From: a virus | Taxonomy: Duplodnaviria > Caudoviricetes | IMG/VR virus record: IMGVR_UViG_3300028593_000003 | Direction: 5' to 3' (one strand) | DNA: 64,000 nt | In this document: positions 918 to 61,202 of the stretch, piece by piece | Numbering within the stretch: position 1 is the stretch's first letter | Layout of the letters: each line of letters begins with the position of its first letter | Translations under genes and position numbers: made by a program | The notes under the pieces: model-generated | The model's input: the letters and a program-made list of their open reading frames with translations, nothing else | Told to the model about the DNA's origin: nothing | Databases searched by the model: none

Positions 918-1166
918 TTATTTTGGTGTATATTTTTTACATACGCCGTTCAATGATACCCAAAATGTAAGTGTTCCATATTTTCTGGATATTCTTATAT
1001 TTTGTGGATTTACACATCTATTTTTAAATTTGCCTATATCAATGTGAAGGCAGGTTGCACAGACATCGATTTTTCTCTCCTGATATCCGGCCTCGAAATA
1101 TTGTTCATCTTCATAGGTAGTCTCTTTTTCCGCCAAATATTTTTCCACCACTCTCTCTATTTCCAT
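918..1166 (-). CDS. Hypothetical protein with CTS-like N-terminus and Cys motif
   Basis: MEIERVVEKYLAE...; CATC...C...C. Confidence 0.6.
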   Translation of the reverse strand: MEIERVVEKYLAEKETTYEDEQYFEAGYQERKIDVCATCLHIDIGKFKNRCVNPQNIRISRKYGTLTFWVSLNGVCKKYTPK

Positions 1167-1435
1167 TTCAAGCGTGTGCCTTCCCTACTATTTTTTGCTC
1201 CTGTTTTATTTTTTCAACTTACTTCTGAGCGACGCTAATTCTTCCTGTGCAAGTTTTAGATTGGTCTTAATAAGACTTAGATGACTATCGGCATACTCAT
1301 CCGCCTGTTTATCATCTTTTATACTCTTCCAATGTTCCTCGGCTTTTTGATATACTACTTTTTTCCTTTCTATCTTTTTTTGAAGCTCAATAATTTTCTT
1401 TTTGATGGGTTCATTCTGTTTGGCCTTCTTCTCAT

Positions 1436-1600
1436 CCGTTCTCCAATACCTACCAGAATCTACCATGAGATTCTGCGCTTGGTTCCTGCTTCAAAGAGGC
1501 TGCCAACGATACTGCTGTTGGTCTTATATCACTCTCCACAGGCGTAACTTTCCGAGGAACTCTCGGTAGTTTTGCTGCTAAATTCTTGAGATTGATGGCT
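1436..1600 (-). ncRNA. Predicted TnpB omegaRNA (reRNA) scaffold at the IS right end
   Basis: Expected position overlapping the tnpB 3' end; perfect 8-bp hairpin CAGAATCT-N6-AGATTCTG at 1454-1475. The 5' boundary is a guess. Confidence 0.5.
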
Positions 1601-2688
1601 GCGTTTAGGTCGCGGTCATGTATTGCACCACAGTCGCAAGTCCACTCCCTATCTGATAACTTCAACTCCGAGTTGATGCAACCACAATGCCTGCATAGAC
1701 GCGAAGATGGGAAAAATCTGTCGGCGACTATCAATTCGGAGCCGTACCAAACTGTCTTGTATTCCAGTTGCCTGCGAAACTCAGCAAATCCAACATCGCT
1801 GATTGCCTGTGCCAAGCAATGATTTGCCAACATCCCAGATACATTTAGGTCTTCAAGCACAACTACACTTGGACGTTCATTATCGGGTTTGGTTTTCGCA
1901 ACGATAACAGACGTTGATTTGTGTAGTGTGTCACGGCGTATGTTGGCTATCCGTTGATGCGCTTTGGCAACTTTCTTCCGTGTCTTTTCTCGATTCTTTC
2001 CACCTTTCTTTCGGCGCGACAGTTCGCGTTGAAGCCGCCTGAGTTTAGCCTGTGCCTTCTTTAATGGCTTCGGATTCTCGAATCTCTGCCCATCAGAAAC
2101 CACAGCCAATTCCTTAACGCCCAAATCAACGCCTATGGGTTCTCCGATTGCCTGGGTAGCCTCAATCTCTTGTTTGCATTGAACACTTACAAACCATCGC
2201 CCTGCCGATTCTGAAACGGTGACAGATAAAATATGGATGCCATCAGCCGGGATGTAGCCGTGTTCTTTTAGCCTGAGCCAGCCAATACGAGGAAGTTTAA
2301 TGTGTGTCTCAGTGATGTGAATTGCGCCAGTCAGTCTAAAACTTCCAATACCATTCTTGCGACTTTTGAACCTTGGGAAGCCCGGTTTTTTTTCATTCTT
2401 CACACGGCGGAAGAAGTTTTGATATGCCTTGTCCAAATCGCGCAGGGCTTCTTGTGGAGCAGCTTTTGAAACTTCGTAAAGCCAGGGGAAATCTGTCTTT
2501 TTCAATGCGTTCAACTGCCGGTGTTGCTCTATAGCATTGCTGGACTTACCGGTTTCCTCATATTCCTGCTTTCGTCTTGCAAGTCCCCAGTTCCAAGCAA
2601 AGCGAGCAGCGCCCGCATGTTTCAGCAATGCAGTTCGTTGAACATTGTTGGGGTCAAGCTCGGTTTTGTAGGCTCTAAGAATTTCCAT
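1450..2688 (-). CDS. tnpB: RNA-guided endonuclease TnpB
   Basis: Probable start MEILRAYKTELDPN; RuvC motifs IGVDLG, VLEDLNV, DRDLNAAIN; zinc finger CRHCG...CDCG. Confidence 0.95.
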   Translation of the reverse strand: MEILRAYKTELDPNNVQRTALLKHAGAARFAWNWGLARRKQEYEETGKSSNAIEQHRQLNALKKTDFPWLYEVSKAAPQEALRDLDKAYQNFFRRVKNEKKPGFPRFKSRKNGIGSFRLTGAIHITETHIKLPRIGWLRLKEHGYIPADGIHILSVTVSESAGRWFVSVQCKQEIEATQAIGEPIGVDLGVKELAVVSDGQRFENPKPLKKAQAKLRRLQRELSRRKKGGKNREKTRKKVAKAHQRIANIRRDTLHKSTSVIVAKTKPDNERPSVVVLEDLNVSGMLANHCLAQAISDVGFAEFRRQLEYKTVWYGSELIVADRFFPSSRLCRHCGCINSELKLSDREWTCDCGAIHDRDLNAAINLKNLAAKLPRVPRKVTPVESDIRPTAVSLAASLKQEPSAESHGRFW

Positions 2689-3301
2689 CAGTCTTTTTCT
2701 TCCTACGTTCTGCACTTCTGCGACCATAGATTTTTGCGCTGAATGACGAAAGCAATGAAAGCATATCCTCGACCAACTCAGCCTCGTAGGATTTTGGCAA
2801 TACTTCTTCACACCATTCTACGGCAACACCGTGACTCTCAAATAGTCTGACAAAGATTGAGAAATTGAAACGAGCCAATCTATCCTTGTGTTCAATGACA
2901 ACTCGATTGATTTTCTGCTCGATAGCCAAGTCAAATAACCTGTGCAACTTTGGGCGGCTGTCGTTCATGCCTGATAGCGTTTCCTCAAAAACATAGCCAA
3001 CTCGATATTGTTTGTTGGCACAGTATTCAAGCACTCGCAACTTTTGGCGTTCTAAGTCGCCTTTCTGTTTCTGGTCGTGGCTGCTGACACGGGTATAAAC
3101 CGCAACACAATCATTTGGCGGATTGTCTTCTGATACTACACCTTGAAGTTGCTCAATATCTTCAATGCGGTATCTCCGATGTCCGCCCTTTGTACGTTCT
3201 GCTTTCAATGCGCCAGAATCGTCCCACGCTCGGAGCGTAGAGATTCCGACACCCAAAAGTTCAGCGGCTTTCGCTATCCCGATTAGTCTCTTGCTCGTCA
3301 T
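2675..3301 (-). CDS. tnpA: IS607 transposase (MerR-type HTH + serine recombinase)
   Basis: AAELLGVGISTLRAWD...TKGGHRRY; YTRVSSHDQK..DLERQ; EHKDRLARF; ELVEDMLSLLSSFSAKIYGRRS. Confidence 0.95.
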   Translation of the reverse strand: MTSKRLIGIAKAAELLGVGISTLRAWDDSGALKAERTKGGHRRYRIEDIEQLQGVVSEDNPPNDCVAVYTRVSSHDQKQKGDLERQKLRVLEYCANKQYRVGYVFEETLSGMNDSRPKLHRLFDLAIEQKINRVVIEHKDRLARFNFSIFVRLFESHGVAVEWCEEVLPKSYEAELVEDMLSLLSSFSAKIYGRRSAERRKKKTDGNS

Positions 3302-3499: not shown

Positions 3500-3603
3500 G
3501 TAGATTATAGTAGATTATCTACTAACTGTTCCTACCCTTTCTTTTTGGCTTAGGCCAAAAATTTCACCAAGATATCTTTCCATTATCAAATCTACTTTAT
3601 CCA

Positions 3604-4038
3604 TTATATGTTTCTCCCTGTTGTGAACTTTACTTTATACTCAAAAAGGTCTTTCAATGTGCTGAGACTTTTCCAGAGATAGGTATAGGCCTCATGTATT
3701 GTTTCGTATTCCTCATCATCAAAAAAACCATCCCGCCACATTGCTTTCAACGAATTGAGGTTCCTTTCCATTTCATTGTCAAACTTTCTTATACTGGAAA
3801 CCATATTGGCCAATGCCATCGGGGCGCTTGCCTCATTCATCTCATATTGTTTCGATTCTGGAAATGTGACATCGCCGGTGAAGGTGGTTTCAACGGAACC
3901 GCTGATATACTTGTCCATCAGTTGATAGGCCTTTTTGGTTTTCTTCTTGGCCTGATAAAACTCCGGAAACTTTTTCCTGAGCATATCGTCAATTTTCTCT
4001 TCCTTGCCCATTTTTCCACCCTCTATTTCCGTGTTCAT
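3604..4038 (-). CDS. Hypothetical protein
   Basis: 144-aa ORF, TAATG-coupled on both sides. Confidence 0.6.
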   Translation of the reverse strand: MNTEIEGGKMGKEEKIDDMLRKKFPEFYQAKKKTKKAYQLMDKYISGSVETTFTGDVTFPESKQYEMNEASAPMALANMVSSIRKFDNEMERNLNSLKAMWRDGFFDDEEYETIHEAYTYLWKSLSTLKDLFEYKVKFTTGRNI

Positions 4039-4673
4039 TACTTCATCCCCCTCTCGATATCAGCAATAACTTGCCAGATTTTCTTGTAATACTCTTTCTG
4101 CGCCTCTTTCAGGGAGATTTTTGGCTGCTCGATAACAGGCTCTTCGACAACCTTTTCCTTTTTTGGTGGTTCAAAGTCCTGGCCTTCATAGATACCATTT
4201 ACCCAAGACGGGTGATTGGACGGGTCTGTAACCATATCCCAAGTGATGAGATAAAAGTCCTCATTGACATAACCATTCTCATTGACGGAACCGAGGCCTC
4301 TGGAAGAAATACCCATTCTGCCTTCTTTGATAAGGGTCTTGGCAATATTTCCCATCGGAGTATCAAGAACTTTTGACCTCCCGATTACATTCGGGCCATC
4401 CCAATCAAGCTTTTCAGTCAGAATGGCAATCTTGTCAGGATTGATTTCAGGATTTGGTGGGTGACCAAGTTCGCCCCAAAGGCTCCTGTTCGTCAATCTC
4501 TCTTCCAGCTTGCCAATTTCTCTTTCGAGAATATCTTTGGAATATATCCTCTTGTTGTTGTTCTCTTGATCGGCTGTGCTGTAGATGCCAGTAATGTAAA
4601 GAGATTTCCCTTTCTGTTCAGACTCCTCCACAATAAACTCAATATTGTGGGAGAGCTCGGTAATAAGCTTCAT
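4038..4673 (-). CDS. Prohead core protease (T4 gp21-like)
   Basis: MKLITE start; NNNKRIY, GELGHP, GISSRGLGS, WDMVTDPS. Confidence 0.95.
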   Translation of the reverse strand: MKLITELSHNIEFIVEESEQKGKSLYITGIYSTADQENNNKRIYSKDILEREIGKLEERLTNRSLWGELGHPPNPEINPDKIAILTEKLDWDGPNVIGRSKVLDTPMGNIAKTLIKEGRMGISSRGLGSVNENGYVNEDFYLITWDMVTDPSNHPSWVNGIYEGQDFEPPKKEKVVEEPVIEQPKISLKEAQKEYYKKIWQVIADIERGMK

Positions 4674-4712: not shown

Positions 4713-5063
4713 TTACTCGTTCCCGGCACCAACTGTTTTCAGAATACGGATAGGTGTGGTCTTGATGACATTGATGACCTGCGCAATTCTCTGATTGTTG
4801 GGGAATTTCGTTACAAGTTCGTGTGCGAGAGACATTGCTTTCGCAAACTTTGCTGGTGTATTTGCCATTGTGAGATAGTATTTCAATCTCTTGAGGCCCT
4901 GTGTAATACTGCCGGCATCCCTTGTTGGATCGTAGGTGCCTGGTACTGAACTGGCTACAGGCGGATAAAGTTTTTGATCACCGGCTGAAAATTCCTGTGG
5001 CTCCGGTTCATCAAAAACTCCTTCCTTCAAATACATATCAATTTTTTCCTCGATCTTTTTCAT
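4713..5063 (-). CDS. Hypothetical protein with CTS-like N-terminus
   Basis: MKKIEEKIDMYLKE... Confidence 0.6.
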   Translation of the reverse strand: MKKIEEKIDMYLKEGVFDEPEPQEFSAGDQKLYPPVASSVPGTYDPTRDAGSITQGLKRLKYYLTMANTPAKFAKAMSLAHELVTKFPNNQRIAQVINVIKTTPIRILKTVGAGNE

Positions 5064-5255: not shown

Positions 5256-5510
5256 TTATTTTTTGGCTGCCTTTTCTCTTTCTCTTTCAGCCTTTGCTTT
5301 TTCCTGATAACTCTCGATTCTCTTCTGCAGAGTTTCGATGTGGGCCTGTCCTCTTTTACGGATTTGCTCTTTCCTGTCAGGATCGTCCGTATCCTCCACA
5401 GCCCGACTGACCAGTTCACGGGTATCCCGTATCTGTTTTCTCAAAAGGCTAATAGTATCCGAGTAATCAGCTTCCATAAGATATCTTTTCATAACTCTGT
5501 TAACTTCCAT
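5256..5510 (-). CDS. Coiled-coil hypothetical protein with CTS-like N-terminus
   Basis: MEVNRVMKRYLMEA..., RBS GAGGTG. Confidence 0.6.
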   Translation of the reverse strand: MEVNRVMKRYLMEADYSDTISLLRKQIRDTRELVSRAVEDTDDPDRKEQIRKRGQAHIETLQKRIESYQEKAKAEREREKAAKK

Positions 5511-5552: not shown

Positions 5553-8048
5553 TCAGTCTTTTCTCCTGTTTATAAAATCTATTGACATTTGAATAATATA
5601 TTTGAACATCTCATTCAATTTTGTATCTTGGTGAGATTCCAGCTGCAAACAAGTTTGAAAATCCTTGTGAAACTGAATTGTATCTTGAACTGTCGAGCCT
5701 TTACCTCCCTTTGGTCGCAGCGTTTGAACACCTATCAAAAACTCTTTACCTTCCCTATCAATTCCATAGATGTTTGCATATCCTGAAGATGATAATCCCC
5801 TCACTTTTTTTCCTTCCGTATCGAAATCATCATCATCTTCAACATCGGTGCTACTACATTTGACTTCTGAAACTCTTATATGCTTCCAGAAATCCTGCTT
5901 ATCTTTCTTTGTTTTCAAACCAAGACATTTGGAAAAGGTTTCTGTATTCCCCACAGTCGCAGTATCACCATCTGTCAATCCGGTTATTGTTCTGGTAACC
6001 TCCTGACCGTTTACTATTCTCGTAAATCTTTCAACCTGCTTTTCCTTACCTTTTTCTTTAACCGTGACCATCTTCCTTTCCCACGGATTACCCTGTTCAT
6101 CGTATCTTATTCTACTATTATTTTTCCCCATATTCAATTCAAAATACTTTGCTGGTATTCCACCAACATTGTGCCCGGAAACAATATGACCGTGAAACCT
6201 GTCTATAAACAATTTGGAAAAATATTCGTCGCCTTTACCTTTGAGGGCTTTATTCATTTCTTTTCTCGCCTCATTTTGTAGCATATGCTGTTCCTGATAT
6301 TTCCCGGCCATAGCCTTTTCATCAAATGGCGCAATTCTGCTTGCAACTTTACTCATTTCTTTTGAAACATCAATTGTATCGTCCACTACACTTGCTTTCA
6401 ATTCATTAACATATGAGAGAAGTATTTTTTTCTCCTCTTCATCAGTCAATGGTGGTTTATATGTTCCTGTTTTACTATTAAAAGTCCGGCCTTTTATAGG
6501 TGTATCACCTTCATAATATCTCTTGACTATCGAATTCCAATATTTTGCTGGTTCATCTCCTGTACTTGATTTTTTTATTTCATCTATGAGCTTTTTTCTT
6601 TCATTTGGTTTCAAAGCTCTCTGATAAAGTTTATCATATTCTTTGCTGATGACCCCCTCTACTTCTGACTGTTTTTCCTCCAATCTCTTGACAAGTCTAT
6701 CACAGGCTTTCTTGTAGGCATTATATTCTTTTGCTGAGATTTTTCCATCGTTCAAATCCTCTTCCGCATAAGATAACATTTTTTTGACATTCGATACTGG
6801 GCTTGAATTTCCTTGGATATCAGATGTGGATGTCTTATTGGATGTATGAAGAATAACTGCCTTTGGAGGCTTCTGTGAATGATCTATAAGAACTGACATT
6901 GTATCAGTAGGATTATCTCCAGCACCTCCTCCCAAAATGACAGATTTATATTTGTTAAATGATACACCATTTACTTCCACTACTCCCATCTTATCGAGAA
7001 AATCAACTGTGTTTTGTAAAGATTCTTTACTCCCCCAAACGTGAGAAACTGTAGTGGTCTTTGGATTAAATCCATCCTCTTTCATTACTCTTTTTATTCT
7101 TCTATGTTCGGCTTTTGCAGAAATGGCCGCGGCATACGCCGCTTTTTGACTTAATTCCTCTCCATTTTTATAAACAACATCCGTATCTTTTATCTCTTTC
7201 CATAGTTTTTGATAAAGTTGGTTTACATTCATATTTGGATTTTGATGGAGATAAGAAAGACAAGTTCCAATACTCGTTTCATTGATAAATGATGATTTAT
7301 TGCCCGGAGCCTTTGTTCTTCCTTCATATGCCCCCTTCTTTGCGTCACCATCAATTATATCAATTATAGAGCGATCCATACCACCCTTTTCTTTCAGGGT
7401 TTTCAAAACTTTCTCTTGTTTTTTGGTCGCCTTTTCCTTCTCAACCTTTTCAACTTTTGCGGCGTATTTTTTGTAAACATCTTCTGACCAAGCTGGGGCG
7501 CCGGTTTCTCCACCTTCTCCAAATTGGTCGTGGAAATTGTGAAGAAATTTCGATAGCTCTTCTTGTTCCATCCCCTTTAATAAACTATCAAACTTTTTTG
7601 TTTTCTCTTGATCTGTTTCTTTGGATTTGACAATGGAAGAAAATTCTTTATTTTTTATTTTCTTTATCGCGTCTTTCTGGTGATCTGTGATTCCCGCCGG
7701 AGACACGGCCTCTTTAGGTTTTTCCTTTTCTTTTCCAAGTTCCTCTTCGTGTTTTGTCTCTATTTTTTTCGCCTTTGAATCTTTTTGTTTGAGTGGAGCC
7801 CCAAGATGGCTCGCATATACTCCTTCTGGATATCTATCAAGTATATAATTCTGCTCGCCGGCAGACCATTTATTCCATCTTGCTATTTGTTCCGGTGTAA
7901 TTTCCTTTTTCTTTTTATCGCTTGGCTTTTCTTTTGCCGTTGTTTTTTCTTTCGGCTTCAACACACTTACAGGCGCCTTTGACTTTGGCTTTGTGGCCTC
8001 AAAAAAAATATCAGAAATATTTTCTTTTACGAAGTTTCTAAATTTCAT
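5553..8048 (-). CDS. Large K-rich hypothetical protein (831 aa), putative internal head protein
   Basis: Long ORF directly after the portal gene; N-terminus MKFRNFVKE. Confidence 0.7.
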   Translation of the reverse strand: MKFRNFVKENISDIFFEATKPKSKAPVSVLKPKEKTTAKEKPSDKKKKEITPEQIARWNKWSAGEQNYILDRYPEGVYASHLGAPLKQKDSKAKKIETKHEEELGKEKEKPKEAVSPAGITDHQKDAIKKIKNKEFSSIVKSKETDQEKTKKFDSLLKGMEQEELSKFLHNFHDQFGEGGETGAPAWSEDVYKKYAAKVEKVEKEKATKKQEKVLKTLKEKGGMDRSIIDIIDGDAKKGAYEGRTKAPGNKSSFINETSIGTCLSYLHQNPNMNVNQLYQKLWKEIKDTDVVYKNGEELSQKAAYAAAISAKAEHRRIKRVMKEDGFNPKTTTVSHVWGSKESLQNTVDFLDKMGVVEVNGVSFNKYKSVILGGGAGDNPTDTMSVLIDHSQKPPKAVILHTSNKTSTSDIQGNSSPVSNVKKMLSYAEEDLNDGKISAKEYNAYKKACDRLVKRLEEKQSEVEGVISKEYDKLYQRALKPNERKKLIDEIKKSSTGDEPAKYWNSIVKRYYEGDTPIKGRTFNSKTGTYKPPLTDEEEKKILLSYVNELKASVVDDTIDVSKEMSKVASRIAPFDEKAMAGKYQEQHMLQNEARKEMNKALKGKGDEYFSKLFIDRFHGHIVSGHNVGGIPAKYFELNMGKNNSRIRYDEQGNPWERKMVTVKEKGKEKQVERFTRIVNGQEVTRTITGLTDGDTATVGNTETFSKCLGLKTKKDKQDFWKHIRVSEVKCSSTDVEDDDDFDTEGKKVRGLSSSGYANIYGIDREGKEFLIGVQTLRPKGGKGSTVQDTIQFHKDFQTCLQLESHQDTKLNEMFKYIIQMSIDFINRRKD

Positions 8049-9725: not shown

Positions 9726-10125
9726 CAGATTTCTCCTCTATCAAAGCCTTATCCTGTTCTTCCTGCTTCTTCAATTCCATAACTCTTATCTGTCTTTGTC
9801 TTTCTTCAACAAATTTTGTCAGATCAACCCCGATATTTCTTCCTATAACGTGAGCGACAACCTCAGTCCAAACTGTTTCGTTTCTCAAATGTTCCTGCGC
9901 TTTTTCCACTCCGACAAGACGATTACTCAACTCCTGTATCAATATCATTGTCCGTATCGGTGCACAATCTGCTACAAGTATTGGTGTCTGATCTCCATCG
10001 AGTGGGTTGGGTTTCCACCAACTTTCAATGAAATTTGGACATTTTCTCACTTCCCCGAATAATTCATACATCCCACAAACAGCCTTTCCTGTTTTCTCAT
10101 CTATTGGGTTACAAGTTCCTTTCAT
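9712..10125 (-). CDS. Hypothetical Cys-containing protein (possible fibre assembly protein)
   Basis: 137-aa ORF next to a fibre gene. Confidence 0.55.
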   Translation of the reverse strand: MKGTCNPIDEKTGKAVCGMYELFGEVRKCPNFIESWWKPNPLDGDQTPILVADCAPIRTMILIQELSNRLVGVEKAQEHLRNETVWTEVVAHVIGRNIGVDLTKFVEERQRQIRVMELKKQEEQDKALIEEKSDGVV

Positions 10126-10128
10126 AAA

Positions 10129-10926
10129 TTAATCCTTTTCAACAATTATTCCTACATTTGCTAACATTCTCCAGCTTGATACATCCGATTTAGCACCGAG
10201 TGTATGTGTATGTGATCCAGCTAATCCGGTATCACCGTGAGAGTGTGGTTGACTACCTCCGGTTGCATTTGTATATGGGGAATAGTCCTGCATACCTACA
10301 CTTGCACTAAAATTGAGAACACCATATCCACCACAAACTCTGCCCATATAGTGAGTGTGACTTGGCATTTCATCAACCGTCAATGTGTGAGATGGTGTCG
10401 TATGTTGATGATCTGATTGTGTAGATATTGTGTGGTTATGACCAGCAAGTGTCCATGTTCCTCTCTGGACACCACCGGAAACATTATATGCTTCCGTTCC
10501 TCCCTTTACAGCAAGAAGAGCATCGGATGTACCCGCCACAATTGTCCATCCTGTGGGGGCTGTGTCCTCATAAATCCATAATTTTCTACCGGAAGTCAAG
10601 AAATTATTCAAATTGGAGATAAGAACATTGGTTGCCGTATTTAATCCTATAGTGATATTATCGCCACTCGTAGTTATGGTCGTATTGTTACCTTCAACCA
10701 ATGTAAGAGTATCATCGACATCATCAGCTTCAACGGTAGTCTGTCCAGCAACAGCAATTTTCTGAAATATGTAGATCGGCATCCATTGAGAATTATCTGC
10801 ATAATAGAGGATACCGCTTGTCGTATTATAGACCAATCTACCGATAAAAGAGGCTTCCCAAGTAGGAAGCGTGGAAAGTCTTTCACACCAGACTTTTCCC
10901 TGAGTGTCTATTTCGTGAAATTTCAT
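10129..10926 (-). CDS. Tail fibre/appendage protein
   Basis: Shared N-module (LPTW...GRLVYN); APTGWT collar-like motif; repeated HxH needle motifs (HNH, HQH, HTH). Confidence 0.75.
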   Translation of the reverse strand: MKFHEIDTQGKVWCERLSTLPTWEASFIGRLVYNTTSGILYYADNSQWMPIYIFQKIAVAGQTTVEADDVDDTLTLVEGNNTTITTSGDNITIGLNTATNVLISNLNNFLTSGRKLWIYEDTAPTGWTIVAGTSDALLAVKGGTEAYNVSGGVQRGTWTLAGHNHTISTQSDHQHTTPSHTLTVDEMPSHTHYMGRVCGGYGVLNFSASVGMQDYSPYTNATGGSQPHSHGDTGLAGSHTHTLGAKSDVSSWRMLANVGIIVEKD

Positions 10927-19982: not shown

Positions 19983-19996
19983 TTATGTTTCCTCTA

Positions 19997-20569: not shown

Positions 20570-20590
20570 CTATATTTCCTCTTTTGTTAC

Positions 20591-20776: not shown

Positions 20777-20809
20777 TTTGTACCTCCAAAATATGTTACT
20801 CTATAGTAT

Positions 20810-23787: not shown

Positions 23788-23797
23788 TCTTTACCTA

Positions 23798-35912: not shown

Positions 35913-35913
35913 G

Positions 35914-53957: not shown

Positions 53958-54348
53958 AATTATCCGCTAACCTCACAACATCATCCAGCTCATTTGTAGA
54001 ACATTCAAGGTAAACAGCGGATGTTTTCCCTATCATACGGTGGATCATGCCGGGTTCAATAATTCTATAATCACCTGCTTTGAGTTCTTCCTTTCTATCT
54101 TCCAAAATAAGATCAACAATACCACTCAAAATAAGAATCGTTTCGTGCTTCTGTTCGTGGTACTGGACACTTGTCATACCACCCTTTTCAATTTCAAGAA
54201 TTTTTACAACATACCTATCGCTAATGAGAAGGACTTCTCTTCCCCAAGGCTTCTTTGTCTCTGCTTCCTCTCCTGTCAAATTTATCTTTATGGTGCCAGA
54301 GAATATGTCTTTTAGCAAACGAAAGAAGTTCATCATTTTTACCCTCAC
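53941..54348 (-). CDS. Cupin (mannose-6-phosphate-isomerase type II C-terminal-like)
   Basis: KPWG, SVQYHEQKHET, PGMIHR, DDVVRLADNYGR. Confidence 0.85.
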   Translation of the reverse strand: MRVKMMNFFRLLKDIFSGTIKINLTGEEAETKKPWGREVLLISDRYVVKILEIEKGGMTSVQYHEQKHETILILSGIVDLILEDRKEELKAGDYRIIEPGMIHRMIGKTSAVYLECSTNELDDVVRLADNYGRLL

Positions 54349-54520
54349 ACTTTTTTATCGTACCGTTATTTATCTTCAAATATTTCTTCTCCTGATCGTT
54401 ATAACAGGCAATAATAGACTCATTCTGAGAAATTTTTGCAATAAATATGCCCTGAAATTTCTCATCAGTTACCCATTCACCTTGAGAAAAACTACCCTCC
54501 AAAAAATTTTTGAACAGCAT
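54221..54520 (-). CDS. Hypothetical protein with CTS-like N-terminus
   Basis: MLFKNFLE; RBS GAGG; 3' overlap with the cupin gene makes the boundaries uncertain. Confidence 0.45.
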   Translation of the reverse strand: MLFKNFLEGSFSQGEWVTDEKFQGIFIAKISQNESIIACYNDQEKKYLKINNGTIKKCEGKNDELLSFAKRHILWHHKDKFDRRGSRDKEALGKRSPSH

Positions 54521-54526: not shown

Positions 54527-54862
54527 TCACTTTTTTTCTTTCCAGATATAAAAATATTGCGTATTTGTATGTTTTTCAAAATCTGAATCGAATTTCAGAT
54601 CGTTATTATCACAAAAATCTATAAGGTAGTTTGTCAATTCGTAAAAATCTTTATTGTAGAATATAAGAACTTGCGGGGGTTTCCAGACAATCTCAACTTC
54701 TCTTTCCTCTTCAGTATAGTCATCTGAAAACGATTTGAGTGTAATGACGGTGTTTCGGGGGCTCCTGACGATGGTTTTCAACATATTCTTATCCTGTGGA
54801 ACCAGTTTATCCGATGCTTCCACAATCACATCCTTATACAGGTATTCATCAAATTTTGCCAT
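54527..54862 (-). CDS. Hypothetical protein with CTS-like N-terminus
   Basis: MAKFDEYL. Confidence 0.6.
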   Translation of the reverse strand: MAKFDEYLYKDVIVEASDKLVPQDKNMLKTIVRSPRNTVITLKSFSDDYTEEEREVEIVWKPPQVLIFYNKDFYELTNYLIDFCDNNDLKFDSDFEKHTNTQYFYIWKEKK

Positions 54863-54863: not shown

Positions 54864-55154
54864 TCAATCTGTCAACCTCTTTCCTGATTTTGTTTGTCTT
54901 ACAGCTTCCTTATAAATGTCTGCCAATCTTTTGAGTGGTTCCTTGACATCCAGAATATATCTTATTGCTCCTTTATAAAAATCTCTGCTAAACCTATCGT
55001 GTTCATCCGTATAATCCTTATATTGGAGCCTCTGGTAACTTCCGGAATATTCCTTTTCTTTCTTCTCAAGAAGGTCGAGAAGCTTTTCTGATAACTCTGC
55101 TATATCATTCTCTTCCCTATATGTCGCCTCTCTGATATAATCTTTCAGTTTCAT
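54864..55154 (-). CDS. Hypothetical protein with CTS-like N-terminus
   Basis: MKLKDYIRE. Confidence 0.6.
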   Translation of the reverse strand: MKLKDYIREATYREENDIAELSEKLLDLLEKKEKEYSGSYQRLQYKDYTDEHDRFSRDFYKGAIRYILDVKEPLKRLADIYKEAVRQTKSGKRLTD

Positions 55155-55156: not shown

Positions 55157-55594
55157 CTACCTCACTATCGCCTTTTCTGGAATATCTCCCCTGTGCCAGA
55201 TATTTCCTTCGGCTTGTCCTGTCAATCTCATATCCATCGGGTCAAGTTGAGCAAGGTCAACTTTCAACATACTCTTACCGTATGATATGGGGTCAGGTGA
55301 CAACCACACTACCTTATCAACCCTTCCACCAAAATCTGTATCCATTGCATCCTGTGACCCGTCAAGATTTCTGTTCTGATACGCCTTGATGCCTCTTTTT
55401 GTCTCTTGCCCTTTCGGTGGTCTGTGATAATAATACCTTTGCACGATATGTGGCCACCTTCCACGGGAGCTTCCGGCAATCATCGCCTGCTTATCAGGGT
55501 CAAAGTCTTTATACCATCCCTCAAACTTTTTCTGCCATTCCTTCTGTCTGGAACCTATCGGTCTACTTTCAACGAGGTAACCTTTCAATCTCAT
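55157..55594 (-). CDS. Putative ADP-ribosyltransferase-fold (KptA/Tpt1-like) protein with CTS-like N-terminus
   Basis: MRLKGYLVE; YYH...GIK...VWLS.DP...LKVDL..LD...E....GDIP..AI. Confidence 0.45.
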   Translation of the reverse strand: MRLKGYLVESRPIGSRQKEWQKKFEGWYKDFDPDKQAMIAGSSRGRWPHIVQRYYYHRPPKGQETKRGIKAYQNRNLDGSQDAMDTDFGGRVDKVVWLSPDPISYGKSMLKVDLAQLDPMDMRLTGQAEGNIWHRGDIPEKAIVR

Positions 55595-56154
55595 CAATCC
55601 ATATGCTCCATATTCGTATGTTTATAACCACTTGGTTTACCGTACATCACTATACCATAATGGTAGGATTTGTTTTCCTGATCAATATAAGCGTGCCATC
55701 TTGCATCAAGTTCATCATATGTCAAATATGTTCTCTTTGGTGAGGCGGGATCTTCAAAATAAATCCTCTTATCATCATATCCTATTGCCACAACCCAATG
55801 TGCCCAATCCCATTCTTCGTTCCAATCTACAGGATTATCAGGCCACGCCTGAACCATCATCATTACCGGAATACCACGATCAATATACGATTTCAATTCG
55901 TCTATCGACATATTTTCCTTTTCTTCCGGTGTCAATCCATACTTTTGGGATGCCCTGACTATATCAGCCGGTTCCGCACCTATATTGGGATCAACATTCA
56001 AATCCTTTATAATGTCAGACTCGCGATATTCCTTTCCATAATAAAAAAGAACTGATTGTAATACAGAGGCCCCACAATCGTAATCATAGGTCTGTCTCAA
56101 TTCCGGAAATTCCATCAGCTTTATATTGTTTACGAAGATTGAAAATCTACTCAC
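55594..56154 (-). CDS. C39-family cysteine peptidase
   Basis: RQTYDYDCGAS, HWVVAIGYD, FEDP. Confidence 0.88.
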   Translation of the reverse strand: MSRFSIFVNNIKLMEFPELRQTYDYDCGASVLQSVLFYYGKEYRESDIIKDLNVDPNIGAEPADIVRASQKYGLTPEEKENMSIDELKSYIDRGIPVMMMVQAWPDNPVDWNEEWDWAHWVVAIGYDDKRIYFEDPASPKRTYLTYDELDARWHAYIDQENKSYHYGIVMYGKPSGYKHTNMEHMD

Positions 56155-57572
56155 TATTTCTCTCCTCCGTGGAGCTTCAATATATATTTATCAATTTCCT
56201 CTTGGTCTTGAACATTGTTATCTATGGCCCATTCCGTGGCTTTCTTGATAATCTTACCTACTTGAGGGCCGGGTGATAGACCCGTCAGCTCCATTACCCT
56301 GTGACCGTCCACAACCTTCATAATGTGATTGACCATCTTCTGGCCCCATTTCTTCTTTATCTCCACGGCAAGATCGACAATCTTCTCAAAATCATCCCTC
56401 GCCATAAATTTCTCTCCACGGGAAAATTCATCTGCTCTGGCTACCGCAACCAGTACATCCCAGTTTTCATCCCCAACCAGTTTGGCAATCTTACTTGGTT
56501 TCATACCGATGATTTTCTGGAACTTCATATGGTTCGCCACGGAGAAGAGGATGGCATCTCTTTCCTTGTTACTCAATCTCAATCTGTCTGCTATATCGTT
56601 TACCAGTTTGACGCCTTCTTCAGCGTGCTGATAGTATATCGGGCCTCTCTCATTATAGTCAAGAGTAACACCTTTACCTACATCGTGGAGAAGGATTGAA
56701 AGATTGATAAGTGGGTCTTTACTCCTGCTGTTTTCCAGAGCGGAAAGAATGTGTTCCCACACATCACCCTCCGGATGAAATTCCTTGACGTGCGGCATAC
56801 CTTTCAGTTTGGCTATCTCCGGTAGAATGATTTCCAGTATTCCCATCTCATCGAGATAGGTGAGATATTTGGCAAACTTATCCCCACCGGAACTGGCTGC
56901 CTTGAAGATTTCCTCTTTTATTCTTTCGGCTGCAAGACCCTTTACCTTGTCTGCCAATTCCGTGGCCGCCTGTTTCGTTTTCGGGTCTATGGCAAACCCA
57001 AGGCGGGAGGCAAATCTTGCCGTCCTCATAATCCTCAAATAGTCCTCACCAAATCTATCGTGAGGATTTCCCACCGTCCTGATGACCTTGTTTTTTATGT
57101 CCTTCATCCCGTCGAAATAGTCGATGATGTTTCCCTCTGCATCAACAGCCATTGCGTTGATGGTGAAATCCCTTCGGGCGGCATCCGCCTCAAAGGAACC
57201 CACAATCTTCACGGTGTCGGGCCTTCTCCCATCCTTATATGTTCCATCCTCACGGAACTGAGCAACCTCATAACTGAAACCGCCTTCCCTGACCACGACC
57301 AGACCGAACTCCTTCGATTTACCGATATCATATACTTTCCAGATTTTGGAAAGTTCTTCCATCGGCATATTCGTGGCAATGTCAATGTCCTTTGGTTTGT
57401 CACCGAGAACAATATCCCTGACAGCCCCGCCAGTAATATAGGCCGAATATCCCCTTGATGTTATCTTTTTCAGAACAGAAACGGCACCACGAAGAATAGG
57501 TTCGGAATTATAATATTCCTTCCATTTTTCAAGTTGCTCGGCTTCAAGTAATAATCTTTTATGTAAATTCAT
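56154..57572 (-). CDS. cca: CCA tRNA nucleotidyltransferase with HD domain
   Basis: GGAVRD, KDIDIAT, RRDFTINAM, EDYLR, ERI..E; HD: HPEGDVWEH, LLHDVGK. Confidence 0.92.
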   Translation of the reverse strand: MNLHKRLLLEAEQLEKWKEYYNSEPILRGAVSVLKKITSRGYSAYITGGAVRDIVLGDKPKDIDIATNMPMEELSKIWKVYDIGKSKEFGLVVVREGGFSYEVAQFREDGTYKDGRRPDTVKIVGSFEADAARRDFTINAMAVDAEGNIIDYFDGMKDIKNKVIRTVGNPHDRFGEDYLRIMRTARFASRLGFAIDPKTKQAATELADKVKGLAAERIKEEIFKAASSGGDKFAKYLTYLDEMGILEIILPEIAKLKGMPHVKEFHPEGDVWEHILSALENSRSKDPLINLSILLHDVGKGVTLDYNERGPIYYQHAEEGVKLVNDIADRLRLSNKERDAILFSVANHMKFQKIIGMKPSKIAKLVGDENWDVLVAVARADEFSRGEKFMARDDFEKIVDLAVEIKKKWGQKMVNHIMKVVDGHRVMELTGLSPGPQVGKIIKKATEWAIDNNVQDQEEIDKYILKLHGGEK

Positions 57573-58097
57573 TTATTCCCCAATATTCAGCCCTGCGGCT
57601 TCTGCATCATTTTCGGAGCCATAGTGGTAATAATCCCTTTTGACATCTTCTATCCAACTATTATAATTACTGATATATTTTTTGAGCCATTCTGGTGATA
57701 ACTCAAAACTGTATTCAGACCAAAAATGTCCTTCACCTGGCGCAGTTATTTCCATCTTACCACTATTGTCTGATGTAATAAAGCCTGTAACATACTCCCT
57801 TGGTTCACCTTCCGGTGGATATAAAACAACTGGTTTCATATAACCCTTTTTGGCTAACCATCTTATCATATCAAGATGTATTTCTGCTCTGATTGGCCAT
57901 ACTATCAGTTTTTGTTCCTTTGGAGCAACAATAAATCTGAACCTCTTTACACCGGATGTTTTTACAAGGTTTTTCATTTCCATTGGTGTTGGATTGACAT
58001 ATATTTCACGATATTGTTCACCTATCCTGAAACCGATATCACCTCTACCAGAGAAGGTCGCTAAATATTTTTCCTTCAAATATTTCTTCAGCCTCAT
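57573..58097 (-). CDS. Paralog array member 5 (unknown function)
   Basis: MRLKKYLKE...IYVNP...FRFI...W....IH...WLKKY. Confidence 0.7.
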   Translation of the reverse strand: MRLKKYLKEKYLATFSGRGDIGFRIGEQYREIYVNPTPMEMKNLVKTSGVKRFRFIVAPKEQKLIVWPIRAEIHLDMIRWLAKKGYMKPVVLYPPEGEPREYVTGFITSDNSGKMEITAPGEGHFWSEYSFELSPEWLKKYISNYNSWIEDVKRDYYHYGSENDAEAAGLNIGE

Positions 58098-58501
58098 CAA
58101 AACATCCTCGCATCTTCCCTATTGGAAAAATACTTGTCGAGCCACGCCCAACTGTCATCCAATTTCTTATCACCAAAAGTATCAGTAATTACCATCTTCG
58201 ACCCACGCACTTCACACGAACCAACCATCAGCGTGCCAGCGAGATATCTTTCAGTAATTGGAATGAGGCCCTTCTTTATCAAATGCTTCAACATAAAAGA
58301 GTGAATTTCAACTTCCTCATCCCATACATAGAGATTTTTCTTATTTGGATCAGCAATAAATCTCATCCCGTTCAATTTGAATTGTTGCATATCCCGAGCA
58401 TCCGGATTTACATAGATCGCCAATCTTTCATCCTCAAAGGTCTCTCCGGCGGGTAAATATGATCCGATATATTTTTCCTTCAGATATTTCTTGAGCCTCA
58501 T
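58097..58501 (-). CDS. Paralog array member 4
   Basis: MRLKKYLKE...IYVNP...RFIA...W...IH...WLDKYFSN. Confidence 0.7.
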   Translation of the reverse strand: MRLKKYLKEKYIGSYLPAGETFEDERLAIYVNPDARDMQQFKLNGMRFIADPNKKNLYVWDEEVEIHSFMLKHLIKKGLIPITERYLAGTLMVGSCEVRGSKMVITDTFGDKKLDDSWAWLDKYFSNREDARMF

Positions 58502-58995
58502 CCCTTTTCACCCCACTTGTGGTGAGTTCTCATCAATTCACCCGTATTACCAATATAGGCCATCACCCTGTCCATATTACTGAAATACTTTTCGACCCAC
58601 TCCCATCCATCCGTTTGAATATGCTCAAAGTCTCTCATATTGTAACCAAGACCCCATTCAAATTTCATCTTGTCTCCGTCCGGTGAAGCAAATCCTGAAA
58701 ATAAACTTTCCGGAAACCTTCCCCACTCATCTGCTGGAATTTTATCAATACTCTGAAGATACTCAAGGACGCAGGAATGAATACCCTCATCCTCCGATGC
58801 CCATATGAACATCTTTTTATTCGGTGAAAATGCTATAAACTTTATCGTGGCCTCCGGAAACTGCTGTGACCTTGTATAAACATCGGGCATTTTTCTTATC
58901 TCTTCCGGTGTTGGATTTTCATAGATGCGTGCTTTCGCACCGGCATACTTATAAAGACCCATATATTCCTCTTTCAGGTATCTCTTCAGCCTCAT
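58498..58995 (-). CDS. Paralog array member 3
   Basis: Start MRLKRYLKEE (ATGA overlap); IYENP...KFIA...W...IH...WVEKYFSN. Confidence 0.7.
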   Translation of the reverse strand: MRLKRYLKEEYMGLYKYAGAKARIYENPTPEEIRKMPDVYTRSQQFPEATIKFIAFSPNKKMFIWASEDEGIHSCVLEYLQSIDKIPADEWGRFPESLFSGFASPDGDKMKFEWGLGYNMRDFEHIQTDGWEWVEKYFSNMDRVMAYIGNTGELMRTHHKWGEKG

Positions 58996-59726
58996 CCAGC
59001 TATAGCCTCCAATTCCCGTATCCACTCTTTCGGAATATTCCAAGTTCTGATAACCCTGATAAATGCCGGATCGTTTTCAATCTGTTTTTTCAGCTTCCAT
59101 CTGTAAAACTTGAGATAATTCTCCATAACCTCAATTACATCGCCGTATTTCTTGACTTCCCTTGTATTACTGATAATCTTGAGTTTACCCTTTGTCTCAT
59201 TGATCAAACTTCCTACGGAAAGCAACCAGTAATAATCGACAATGACAATAACCTCACCCTTGGCTCCATCCGGAATTTTATTTGAGACCTTGTATCCCCC
59301 GACAACCTGATTTATCTTATCATCGTCTACAGACTTCCATAGATTGTCATTCCTCTTGACTTGTGCCAAATCCCATATTTCCGGATTATAAAATGTAGTA
59401 AACGGGCCGATAGGAATAAAAACATACGGTGTACCAAAAAAGGCGGAATGGGGGAGGTCTGTAGTCGTAAAGACAGGAGAGCCGGGCAAATCCAGCTTCT
59501 CTATGACCCTTTCTGCACTCGGAAGGAAACTACCACGGAAACCCTCCCTGTCAGATTTTACCTTTACCATCCAACCGGAACCGTGAAAATCTGATCTCTT
59601 TGACCATCCCTTCCATAAAACTGGATCACTCCTGTCCATCTTCTTGAGAAGATCAAGAACTTCATCAAAATTCCATTCATCCCTTCTGGACACCACACCT
59701 TCATTTATAAATCCCGATAGTCTCAT
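58992..59726 (-). CDS. Hypothetical protein with CTS-like N-terminus
   Basis: MRLSGFINE; unrelated to the flanking paralogs. Confidence 0.65.
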   Translation of the reverse strand: MRLSGFINEGVVSRRDEWNFDEVLDLLKKMDRSDPVLWKGWSKRSDFHGSGWMVKVKSDREGFRGSFLPSAERVIEKLDLPGSPVFTTTDLPHSAFFGTPYVFIPIGPFTTFYNPEIWDLAQVKRNDNLWKSVDDDKINQVVGGYKVSNKIPDGAKGEVIVIVDYYWLLSVGSLINETKGKLKIISNTREVKKYGDVIEVMENYLKFYRWKLKKQIENDPAFIRVIRTWNIPKEWIRELEAIAG

Positions 59727-60176
59727 TTATGTTCTCGCCGCTTGTAAATTCGACCTGATATAGCTATATACTTTACCCATATTCAGGAAATACTTCGAAA
59801 GCCAACTCCAATCATATTCACCAAAAACACTATACCCTCTTGTAAACTTCATCTGGCCGCTCTCAGGTATTGCGTATCCGGCAAAAACACCATCGGCCTC
59901 AAGAGACCACGCATCACGAATTTTCCTTTTTGTGTGAAGATAGTCCAAAACATAATCGTGGATACCGCCATCACTTCTCCACATAAAAAGCTGCTCAGTT
60001 GGGGCATAGGCAATAAATCTTATTGTTTCATCCGGATTGATGTGTTTTTCGGATTTTTGAAAAGTGGGCATAAATCGTATCTCATTAGCATTCGGGTTCT
60101 CATATATTTCGGTATGTTCTCCCGCATACTTGTATATACCGATATATTCCTCTTGGAGATACTTTTTCAGCCTCAT
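59727..60176 (-). CDS. Paralog array member 2
   Basis: MRLKKYLQEE...IYENP...RFIA...W...IH...WLSKYFLN. Confidence 0.7.
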   Translation of the reverse strand: MRLKKYLQEEYIGIYKYAGEHTEIYENPNANEIRFMPTFQKSEKHINPDETIRFIAYAPTEQLFMWRSDGGIHDYVLDYLHTKRKIRDAWSLEADGVFAGYAIPESGQMKFTRGYSVFGEYDWSWLSKYFLNMGKVYSYIRSNLQAART

Positions 60177-60637
60177 TTTCTCCCATCCTTTTCAATATAA
60201 TTCATCAGCTGAGGCATATTGACAAAATACTTGTCAAGCCAATCCCATATGCCCTTGGAAATATCGTATCCCCGTGTGCCAAGACCGTATCCCCTTTCGA
60301 ACTTCATCTTGTTCCCTTGTGGGGAGGCATATCCGGAGACAATATCAGCGGGTTCCCGTCCATATACATCCGTGGGTATTTTCTTTTTCAGTTGAAGCCA
60401 TTCAAGAACGTGGTAGTGGACACCACCATCGGAGGCCCATATAAACAGTTTTTGTTTTGAGCCGAGGGCGAGAAATCTTATAGAGCAATCCATAAGCTCC
60501 GGATGCTTGGGTTCATTGTATATGGTGGGCATAAACCGGATTTCATTGGGGTTGGGGTTTTCATATACCTCTGTAGCTAACCCACCATACTTATACATAC
60601 CTATAAATTCTTCTTTGAGATATCGTTTCAGCCTCAT
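60173..60637 (-). CDS. Paralog array member 1
   Basis: MRLKRYLKEE...VYENP...RFLA...W...VH...WLDKYFVN. Confidence 0.7.
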   Translation of the reverse strand: MRLKRYLKEEFIGMYKYGGLATEVYENPNPNEIRFMPTIYNEPKHPELMDCSIRFLALGSKQKLFIWASDGGVHYHVLEWLQLKKKIPTDVYGREPADIVSGYASPQGNKMKFERGYGLGTRGYDISKGIWDWLDKYFVNMPQLMNYIEKDGRK

Positions 60638-60918
60638 CAGTAACCGTCCGGATCGTCCTCTACTTCATCGTAAATCATATCCCTCAAGGCCATACGAACA
60701 TCGGCCGAGTTTGCGTGTTCATAAGCAGACCCGTAATACCCAACTTCCATATCCCTTCTGGGCAATCCGAGCTGTTTTCTTGCGCCGTGAACCAGTTTAA
60801 CCAGTTTATCATCGAGGGCCTGGGCCATTTTCTCAAAAGCCTCTTGGATATCGGCTGCATAATCATCTATCATTCTATCTGTAATCTCTCGTCTTTTTGG
60901 CATATACCTTCTCCTCAA
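60637..60918 (-). CDS. Hypothetical protein, paralog of 60915..61202
   Basis: ITDRM.D..AA.IQ...VH.ARK.LGL...ANS.DVR..LR.MIYDEVED. Confidence 0.7.
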   Translation of the reverse strand: MRRRYMPKRREITDRMIDDYAADIQEAFEKMAQALDDKLVKLVHGARKQLGLPRRDMEVGYYGSAYEHANSADVRMALRDMIYDEVEDDPDGY

Positions 60919-61202
60919 TATTCCTCATCTTCTACTTCATCATAGATCATACTTCTCAATTCCTGTCTTACATCCTGAGAATTGGCCAGTTCCCACAGGG
61001 AGCCGGAATAGTCCATTTCCAGATACGGCATTCTCTTCAGACCGAGTTCCTTTCTGGCCTTGTGAACCATTGATACTATCTTCGTATCTATTTTCTTCGC
61101 TTCCTTCTCATAAAAGTCTTGGATACCTGCGGCAAGCCTGTCCACCATTCTATCCGTGATCTGTTTTCTGGCTTCATCGAGCCGTTTTTCGAGTTTTGAC
61201 AT
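60915..61202 (-). CDS. Hypothetical protein
   Basis: RBS GGAGG; MSKLEKRLDE; paralog of the previous gene. Confidence 0.7.
   Translation of the reverse strand: MSKLEKRLDEARKQITDRMVDRLAAGIQDFYEKEAKKIDTKIVSMVHKARKELGLKRMPYLEMDYSGSLWELANSQDVRQELRSMIYDEVEDEEY

Follow-up and report, generated by a model that had tools for sequence, protein, structure and literature searches.

Unrelated genes in a 64,000-nt stretch (hereafter the window) of the uncultured phage record IMGVR_UViG_3300028593_000003 (Duplodnaviria; Caudoviricetes) begin with a common peptide leader, which we consider, with a probability of about 0.8, to be this lineage's version of the capsid-targeting sequence (CTS) of phage T4, so that the tagged late proteins would be bound to the prohead core, would lose the leader by cleavage and would be delivered together with the DNA. 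In the mechanism we propose, the leader is a short amphipathic N-terminal peptide that starts with Met and a basic residue and is hydrophobic at position 3, aromatic at 6 and aliphatic at 7, with Glu at 9, and it would dock the newly made late protein on the scaffold core of the assembling prohead. After closure of the shell, a gp21-type serine protease, encoded at 4038-4673, would cut after the Glu, and the mature protein, now free in the head, would exit with the DNA at the next infection. A longer form of the leader, x-I/V-D/E-x-Y/F-L-x-E, ends in the same core and would be interchangeable with the short form. The phage probably loads an unusually large, enzyme-rich protein set into its head. 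Proteins injected with the DNA act before phage gene expression and are thus the first answer to host defences, and in T4 only a handful of injected proteins are known, most of them without a settled function.

A shared leader at the starts of unrelated genes

Scanning the window in all six frames with the pattern M-x4-[YF]-[LIVM]-x-E yielded 12 matches, and 12/12 were located at the starts of minus-strand genes, at positions 8048, 32384, 32803, 33002, 55154, 55594, 58097, 58501, 58995, 59726, 60176 and 60637. All 12 matches to this loose pattern also fitted the strict form M[KR][LF]xx[YF][LIVM]xE. The core [YF][LIVM]xE was present within the first 18 residues of 18 of the 84 called proteins (these 18 include a 5'-open frame at the window edge), against 1.5 expected from its internal rate (P ~1e-14). 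Moreover, when we scored the window with a weight matrix trained on the tags of another genome, the relative G001, and took 18,019 internal window positions as the control, 11 window genes outscored all, or all but one, of the control positions, while 15 genes reached a per-gene chance of about <=0.01 and approximately 22 genes one of <=0.03. The ending was uniform as well, since each of the 12 canonical tags closed with [LIV]-x-E and the long forms closed with L-x-E. After removal of the first 16 residues, the proteins of the tagged set matched one another only among five paralogs, with one additional low-complexity match, and the canonical nine-residue tag is distributed over about eight independent families.

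The long form, which contains the same Y/F-L-x-E core, was found on six genes (918-1166, 4713-5063, 5256-5510, 33673-33966, 415-822 and 3515-3604), and looser leaders were found on five or six further genes, including those of a RimK ligase (36254-37618) and a CCA-adding enzyme (56154-57572). With the longer and looser forms counted, the total comes to about 22-24 genes, and the robust count is 15-22. The original prediction, made from the letters of the window, had put the number at about 25; the tag itself proved real, as the strict matches at gene starts indicate, and 25 has to be taken as an upper bound. All the leaders quoted in that prediction were recovered, but MDKVDLIMERYLGE heads an open reading frame (ORF) of just 29 codons and the ORF starting with MLFKNFLE overlaps the call of a cupin gene. 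It had further held that the tag is not evident on fibre, lysis, sugar or most replication genes, and we found it on none of the genes annotated as such in the window.

The leader appears to be maintained as a peptide. Among the 12 canonical tags, Leu is specified by five kinds of codon at position 3 and by three at position 7 (CTT, CTG, CTC, CTA, TTG), Arg by AGA or AGG and Glu by GAA or GAG; the 18 bases upstream differ between tags, and the relatives use further codons. This synonymous codon variety, together with the unconserved upstream DNA, indicates that the tag is selected as a peptide and not as DNA.

Correspondence with the T4 capsid-targeting sequence and its cut site

The leader shows a residue-by-residue correspondence with the CTS of T4. 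The N-termini taken from the T4 record read MKTYQEFIAE for IPII and IPIII, MKTFKEF for IPI, MELITELFDE for Alt, MAKINELLRE for gp24, MLKEQLIAE for gp22 and MNEPQLLIE for gp21. In the case of T4 IPIII, the first ten residues suffice for incorporation into the head, targeting proceeds mainly via residues 4 and 7 and processing via residues 8 and 10, and an Asp at position 10 stops processing but not targeting (PMC9026906). The T4 internal proteins (IPs) co-purify with the scaffold protein gp22, and the IPs and Alt, which are tagged likewise, are ejected (PMC9026906); gp21 cleaves after the Glu of I/L-x-E (PMC12991175). When the two leaders were aligned on the Glu, T4 residues 4, 7, 8 and 10 coincided with tag positions 3, 6, 7 and 9, and the [LF] at position 3 and the [YF] at position 6 of the tag fell on Y4 and F7 of T4. 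The T4 determinants are therefore exactly the four conserved positions of the tag besides the Met and the basic residue, which means that the tag corresponds to the T4 CTS shortened by one residue. The relative G001 even carries leaders of ten residues that keep the T4 register (MKTFEKYLNE, MNTFEKYLTE and MDTYKKYLNE).

The window also encodes the protease that such a leader calls for, in a head module of T4 type. The gene at 4038-4673 (minus strand) specifies a prohead core protease of the T4 gp21 family (Pfam Peptidase_S77, 94.3 bits with a cut-off of 27; phrog_207, 7e-58), which shares 41% identity with T4 gp21 across the catalytic core and places its H71 and S123 opposite the catalytic pair H85 and S140, the residues mutated for 'dead' gp21 (PMC12991175); the protease thus looks catalytically intact. 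Its own N-terminus contains NIEFIVE at residues 10-16, in parallel to the LIE-9 site noted in T4 gp21 (PMC9026906). A gp20-type portal protein is encoded at 8049-9725 (minus strand; phrog_213, 2e-101), whose best portal match among phage records is cyanophage gp20 at ~30% identity and which marks the T4-like head module. At the gp22 position, 2-397 (minus strand), lies the N-terminal part of a scaffold protein that runs off the window and matches the first residues of the 302-aa scaffold encoded upstream of the capsid gene in the relative L002. The head gene order, namely portal, small core genes, Peptidase_S77 protease and scaffold, mirrors T4 genes 20-67-68-21-22-23 (NC_000866), and L002, whose protease is 90% identical to that of the window, has a complete head module in equivalent order. 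BLAST of T4 gp22, gp67, gp68, the IPs and Alt against the window and the relatives detected no homologs, so the gp22, gp67 and gp68 equivalences in the window are assigned solely by gene order. The window is about 40% G+C and coding nearly throughout, mainly on the minus strand, with an intergenic share of 2.7%. Megablast of 14 kb of it against 50,697 phage records returned no DNA-level relative, and tblastn with one paralog of the tagged family returned no match. By its head genes, the window belongs to a distant T4-like phage.

Next to the tags, the capsid protein provides an independent view of the cut site. The capsid gene of this phage lies outside the window, and the comparison was made in 11 relatives. 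About 44 residues into the capsid protein, just before the structured core, they share a conserved stretch that is Glu-ended in 11/11; in the closest relatives it reads ...MLENEYKYL[ST]E followed by A, and in 9/11 it is a site of the aromatic-[LM]-x-E style, for example W-L-M-E or F-L-M-E, while the two most distant relatives (L022 and L023) have an insertion ending in I-N-E or M-N-E. The BLASTP alignment of T4 gp23 with the capsid protein of L005 begins with FLTEA (62-66) on YLTEA (41-45). We take it that T4 gp23 is matured by cleavage after Glu65, inside this FLTEA motif. The N-terminal propeptide of T4 gp23 is removed by gp21 (PMC5694885). Judged from these alignments, the tag core is the homolog of the known gp21 site in the capsid proteins of the relatives.

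The strongest comparative argument for the Glu as a cleavage mark comes from polyproteins related to the five tagged paralogs. A profile of the paralog family, searched against 1.8 billion representative proteins, recovered 741 clusters (50% identity) at E <=0.001, many of them proteins of 270-2,300 aa that contain the module 2-9 times. Nearly all single-module members start with the tag. The polyproteins carry the full tag on the first module, and their later junctions mostly read ...[VL]-x-E followed by E-[WY] (LKEEW, LNEEW, LREEY), with the residues for processing retained and the Met-basic-hydrophobic part mostly gone, as one would expect if a single address sufficed for the entire chain and cleavage took place at L-x-E. 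The module itself is ~140 aa long, has invariant N-P and His residues, and occurs in up to nine copies in polyproteins of up to 2,323 aa (P0126, P0127, P0129, P0135, P0150). In an AlphaFold2 (AF2) model of paralog 3, with a predicted local distance difference test score (pLDDT) of 80, the first ten residues had a pLDDT of 61 against >90 in the core. Compared with solved structures, the paralog model gave a best Foldseek E of 0.06 and a best VIA Z of 3.8, and no fold could be assigned.

The leader is portable, as the cupin at 32381-32803 demonstrates most clearly. This protein has 2,862 homologs, and N-termini were compared in the best 120 of these. Among the 19 closest (61-84% identical and of probable phage origin), 16/19 were tagged, with extensions of 10-29 residues, whereas about 80 of the other 101 had <=2 residues before the conserved domain; the short-start homologs are typically 126-130 aa long and come from contigs of up to 1.1 Mb, some of which are named from bacterial phyla. 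BH2720, a bacterial cupin of solved structure, is homologous to the window cupin from residue 12 of the latter onwards, directly after the tag. The tagged homologs have mainly the short form, and P0008 (MKILEKIDRYINE) and P0016 (MSILDKIDKYLNE) have a long-form leader; the occurrence of both forms on one orthologous cupin indicates that short and long forms are interchangeable. Likewise, residue 25 of the CCA-adding enzyme aligns to residue 3 of the Bacillus enzyme 1miv, giving an N-terminal extension of ~22 aa, and its ortholog in G001 (58% identical) starts with the canonical MRFKRYLAE followed by A where the window has MNLHKRLLLE followed by A. Residue 45 of the RimK ligase aligns to residue 24 of solved RimK homologs, an extension of ~20 aa (offset ~21). 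The expectation that cellular homologs lack the leader was thereby confirmed, in that cupin homologs occur without the tag and the CCA-adding and RimK enzymes are extended by ~20 aa relative to solved homologs; by these alignments the tag is an add-on, absent from cellular cupin homologs. A second group of cupin homologs, P0095-P0113, is extended N-terminally by another sequence of 18-34 residues (such as ...SLIKIIAIGASEL), possibly an address tag belonging to some other lineage of phages.

The tag is not confined to the window. A protease 51-90% identical to that of the window is encoded on 30 IMG/VR contigs. A degenerate DNA pattern for the tag gave 25 matches in G001 (161.6 kb) and 9 in G002, and 0 in the reversed control; over the whole of G001, the N-terminal core was present on 39 of 290 ORFs against 7.7 expected. 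The G001 tags are grouped in arrays, one of which, at 105-116 kb, is in the head module; the others lie at 48.8-56.4, 92-96, 124-127 and 140.7-148.2 kb, and we count approximately 35 tagged genes in its 161 kb. Each prediction of the CTS reading that could be tested at the sequence level held, namely the protease, the [LIV]-x-E end, the T4 determinants, the capsid site, the tags on head-core genes, the add-on character and the conservation at the peptide level.

Tagged genes, their promoters and their neighbours

In the head module, an 831-aa protein tagged with MKFRNFVKE is encoded between the portal and the head-core genes (5553-8048, minus strand) and was identified by both pattern and matrix; its L002 ortholog starts with MKLRNFFHQVNE, and it gave no Pfam, PHROG or PDB sequence match, no fold lead and no usable lead from the protein atlas. 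The gp67 position is occupied by a small head-core protein (5256-5510, minus strand) with the long-form tag MEVNRVMKRYLME followed by A and a doubled TATAAATA upstream. It reads RYLME followed by A and the L002 ortholog reads KYLSLVE followed by A, L-x-E and the Ala being kept despite an insertion. At the gp68 position, the head-core protein of 4713-5063 (minus strand), supported by the matrix, has the long-form tag MKKIEEKIDMYLKE, a leader likewise conserved in L002. An 82-aa protein of the same module (918-1166, minus strand) has the long-form tag MEIERVVEKYLAE, based on the matrix and the N-terminal core. The gene at 415-822 (minus strand), which adjoins the scaffold gene, has a long-form leader recognized by its sequence, MSILDRIDEFLAKD, with Asp replacing the final Glu; by analogy with the IPIII mutant, its product may be targeted but left uncut. 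The 29-codon ORF lies at 3515-3604 (minus strand), directly adjoins an IS607-like element and is possibly the remnant of a tagged gene.

That IS607-type element sits within the head module between the protease and the scaffold gene (1450-3301, minus strand) and has two components, a serine recombinase (MerR-Resolvase, 2675-3301) and a TnpB/OrfB_IS605 gene (1450-2688); L002 has neither the element nor two of the small genes beside it. The scaffolds of the three closest relatives (L002 11672-12580, L003 3066-3965, L005 7814-8728) contain an inserted Cys-rich, zinc-ribbon-like segment with two CPSC-type pairs, an insert absent from the more distant relatives, and all scaffolds share a C-terminal SPF-x-x-Y...VL-x-EN-K.

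Around 32-37 kb, tagged genes are found on both strands. On the minus strand, the highest matrix score of all, 23.0, belongs to a 61-aa protein that matches the pattern with MKFKNYLTE followed by A (32817-33002); the cupin, our clearest add-on case, is a Pfam Cupin_2 protein tagged MKFKDYLKE (32381-32803); a 64-aa protein with MRLYEFLSE (32190-32384) was detected by pattern and matrix; and a DUF3175 protein (33673-33966; Pfam DUF3175, 4e-13) carries the long-form tag MKRDLLERIDLFLVNE, with a late-promoter motif at 34327-34334. On the plus strand, a 122-aa basic protein (35914-36282) has the loose tag MRLLNFLKSIE (matrix 8.0, per-gene chance 0.0065), with a plus-strand late-promoter motif at 34353, and the RimK-type ATP-grasp ligase (36254-37618; Pfam RimK, 5e-46), whose C-terminal domain resembles a zinc protease, has the weak leader MAHLIQYLIE with a matrix score of just 3.7.

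The largest array lies between 54 and 61 kb, on the minus strand throughout. It comprises the uncertain ORF with MLFKNFLE (54221-54520; matrix 0.5), which overlaps the untagged cupin called at 53941-54348; a gene with the loose leader MAKFDEYLYKDVIVE followed by A (54527-54862; matrix 6.6, per-gene chance 0.009); a 96-aa protein with MKLKDYIRE followed by A (54864-55154) and a 145-aa protein with MRLKGYLVE (55157-55594), both found by pattern and matrix; and the CCA-adding enzyme with an HD domain (56154-57572; Pfam PolyA_pol, PolyA_pol_RNAbd and HD), whose MNLHKRLLLE is a degenerate leader. The five paralogs, recognized by pattern and paralogy, follow as paralog 1 (MRLKKYLKE, 57573-58097), paralog 2 (MRLKKYLKE, 58097-58501), paralog 3 (MRLKRYLKE, 58498-58995), which served as the family reference, paralog 4 (MRLKKYLQE, 59727-60176) and paralog 5 (MRLKRYLKE, 60173-60637). 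Between paralogs 3 and 4 is a 244-aa protein tagged MRLSGFINE (58992-59726), all four homologs of which (4/4) are tagged.

Recognisable families among the tagged proteins number four, the cupin, DUF3175, the RimK-type ligase and the CCA-adding enzyme. Ten further tagged proteins searched against PHROGs gave only two weak matches, to families of unknown function and both for the protein of 58992-59726. The predicted isoelectric points (pI) of the tagged proteins range from 4.5 to 10.7, a spread which indicates that, unlike T4 IPII and IPIII, they are not uniformly basic DNA-binding proteins. The original prediction that the tag precedes unrelated domains is borne out by Pfam for the cupin, DUF3175 and RimK, but the ADP-ribosyltransferase-like (ART-like) domain it also named could not be established. 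The 244-aa protein matched no Pfam family, and its model (pLDDT 70, from just 4 sequences) gave weak matches that were enriched in proteins of the ADP-ribosyltransferase fold, at Z values no higher than 4, none reaching 5 (Arr Z 3.3, DarT Z 3.0, cholix toxin Z 3.0, CteC Z 2.7, OspC3 Foldseek E 0.016); a possible ART-like fold is thus weakly suggested by the model and serves as a lead only.

The tagged clusters are preceded by late-promoter-like motifs, as had been predicted. YATAAATA occurs 14 times in the window, and 9/14 of the sites fall in the intergenic 2.7%; they are located 18-142 bases upstream of same-strand gene starts and stand ahead of all four tagged clusters. The head-core sites are at 5528 and 5538. 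A divergent TATAAATA pair (34327-34360, both strands) heads the minus-strand tagged cluster from 34298 to 32190 and the plus-strand cluster from 34396 to 37618, and a CATAAATA motif (61344-61351, minus strand) occupies the gap between genes ahead of the tagged cluster running from 61202 to 54221. Untagged genes, some of them structural, also have YATAAATA sites. In the relative G001, there is a gene for a homolog of gp55, the late sigma factor of T4 (E 3e-13). Late expression of the tagged genes is plausible on the basis of these motifs.

Several neighbouring genes deserve mention in their own right. The minus-strand cluster starting at 34298 ends with a protein that has a TnsA-like endonuclease N-terminal domain (31729-32187, minus strand; Pfam 1e-22). 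The first gene of the late-promoter-led operon that ends in two tagged genes, including the RimK-type ligase, encodes a PAS-domain protein (34396-35370, plus strand), and a sensor domain in a phage late operon is unusual. Convergent with this operon is a phage ClpP gene (37615-38223, minus strand; Pfam CLP_protease, 2e-41). In the middle of the largest array, between the 145-aa protein and the CCA-adding enzyme, lies an untagged papain-like Peptidase_C39 protein (55594-56154, minus strand), and the same array is adjoined by a JAB/MPN peptidase gene and a ThiF (E1-like) gene (61429-62837, minus strand); in G001, a ThiF-like gene is likewise found beside a tagged-gene array (locus entry L035 11330-12915).

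The rest of the window contains collagen-like fibre genes, sugar-nucleotide genes, a split family-B DNA polymerase, DnaB-type and UvsW-type helicases and ClpP. Upstream of the collagen-repeat fibre genes is the gene of a 1385-aa protein that combines two methyltransferase regions with a GT1 glycosyltransferase and a GT9 (heptosyltransferase-like) domain; this protein and the fibre region are located at 10974-15131 and 18258-27973, respectively, both on the minus strand. The family-B DNA polymerase is present as two ORFs (39730-41487 and 38226-39146, minus strand) with a GIY-YIG-like homing endonuclease ORF (39085-39696) in between, just upstream of which, at 39731, there is a TATAAATA motif. 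A second GIY-YIG-like ORF (46340-46966, plus strand) precedes the UvsW-type helicase gene.

Alternative explanations and comparison with known systems

Several observations weigh against reading the leader as a CTS. The long and loose forms are weak one by one in the matrix, and 5 of the 12 canonical tags belong to a single paralog family, whose members could have kept the tag simply through common descent. Inside tagged proteins, [YFW][LIVM]xE is barely depleted (1.4 vs 1.6 per 1000 residues), and for [LIVM]xE the difference (13 vs 17 per 1000 residues) is too small for use. The link to the capsid cut site comes from relatives, the closest of which has a protease ~90% identical; one leader (415-822) ends in Asp, and one tagged ORF has just 29 codons. 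Finally, packaging, cleavage at Glu9, presence in the virion, ejection, an effector role and core binding would follow for the tagged proteins by analogy with T4. A complex prediction for the scaffold with the tagged cupin gave a score of 0.00, which we counted neither for nor against binding.

The alternative that retains most force is that the tag marks only assembly proteins of the prohead core or scaffold, which would be targeted and cut and then degraded or retained instead of being delivered as effectors. Such a limited role would suit the several tagged genes inside the head module at the gp67 and gp68 positions, T4 gp67 and gp68 being core proteins that are cut to fragments (PMC5694885), as well as the small size and unassigned function of most tagged proteins. 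For the tagged proteins of the head module, a part as core or scaffold components is indeed more likely than one as cargo or effectors, and the original claim that dozens of effectors are loaded into the head is established neither in its count nor for these members. As an account of the whole set, however, assembly alone is improbable, for the cupin, the CCA-adding enzyme, the RimK ligase and DUF3175 have enzyme folds of cellular type that play no obvious part in assembly, the head module is a long way from the tagged clusters at 32-37 kb and 54-61 kb, and the likewise-tagged IPs and Alt of T4 are ejected (PMC9026906).

Two further explanations place the function of the leader outside the head. 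Some N-terminal recognition motifs of ClpX start with Met-basic-hydrophobic and so resemble residues 1-3 of the tag, and the window encodes a ClpP at 37615-38223, which raises the possibility that the leader is an N-terminal degradation signal for a Clp-type unfoldase/protease and gives the proteins a short lifetime. We rejected this explanation as very unlikely because it accounts neither for the invariant Glu and for an aliphatic residue at the second position ahead of it, nor for the identity of the core with the capsid maturation site and the L-x-E junctions of the polyproteins, nor for the tags on head-core genes beside the S77 protease or the fact that some relatives have tags nearly identical to the T4 CTS. 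Slightly less credible still is a recognition sequence for a modifying enzyme, similar to the leaders of ribosomally synthesized and post-translationally modified peptides (RiPPs): a leader common to unrelated small proteins typifies such systems, and some relatives have radical-S-adenosylmethionine (radical-SAM)-like genes near the head module (L002 2308-3480), but the tag is also found on proteins of 450-830 aa, and the L002 gene, situated between the orthologs of 10129-10926 and 9712-10125, is absent from the window while the tags persist. A radical-SAM leader was rejected since the CxxxCxxC motif occurs in 0 called proteins of the window. The remaining proposal, that the shared start is a nucleic-acid feature, be it an RNA element for translation initiation or regulation or a cassette that shuffles genes by recombination, could draw on the A-rich codons after the ATG and on the conserved 5' ends that are said to promote shuffling of the T4 internal-protein genes, but we rejected it as having next to no chance, given that Leu, Arg and Glu codons vary among the tags, the upstream DNA is unconserved and relatives use other codons. 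All four alternatives explain fewer observations than the CTS reading does.

Extending the CTS reading beyond the window, we lean slightly towards the view that a clade of uncultured T4-like phages uses the T4 CTS as a general loading system, with about one gene in eight tagged, for ready-made enzymes, among them a CCA-adding enzyme for tRNA repair, a RimK-type glutamate ligase, a cupin and possibly an ADP-ribosyltransferase, and, in some relatives, for polyproteins of up to nine modules that the head protease would cut at L-x-E. If this is true, the injected protein set of uncultured phages could be read from sequence and metagenomes, and candidate counter-defence enzymes would come within reach; a CCA-adding enzyme already present in the head, for instance, could restore damaged tRNA ends. 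The tag would moreover give the specificity of a distant gp21-family protease directly from its sequence, and foreign proteins could be packaged into phage heads by means of such short natural tags.

Much of this system has its counterpart in T4. The CTS of T4 IPI, IPII, IPIII and Alt (Mullaney and Black 1996, reviewed in PMC9026906 and PMC3012670) is, like the window tag, a leader of about ten residues placed right after the Met, with hydrophobic or aromatic determinants three residues apart followed by aliphatic-x-Glu, and it is borne by unrelated carriers; also common to both phages are a gp21-family protease and the head gene order and, as seen in the relatives, the type of propeptide site in the capsid protein. 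Unlike in T4, the commonest form here has 9 residues instead of 10, and a second, longer form exists. There are about 15-24 tagged genes in 64 kb, and about 35 in the 161-kb relative, whereas T4 has eight known core and internal proteins. The putative window cargo includes cellular-type enzymes (the cupin, the CCA-adding enzyme, the RimK-type ligase and DUF3175), and relatives chain modules together. In phiKZ, 201phi2-1 and SPN3US, a protease homologous to gp21 processes many internal head proteins at a short motif, cutting after its Glu, the propeptides of these proteins are thought to target, and diverged paralogs have identical N-termini (PMC5694885, PMC7411985). The motif of these giant phages is, however, A/S/G-x-E, and most of their propeptides exceed 100 residues, whereas the window leader has 9-16 residues and ends, as in T4, in aromatic-aliphatic-x-E. 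The CTS has been regarded as possibly an evolutionary device for loading various proteins (PMC9026906), and a literature search returned no paper on large CTS-tagged gene sets, or on enzyme cargo, in uncultured T4-like phages. T4 already provided the principle, and the novelty lies in the scale and in the enzyme cargo; the CTS principle, established in T-even phages only, appears to be old, widespread and massively expandable.

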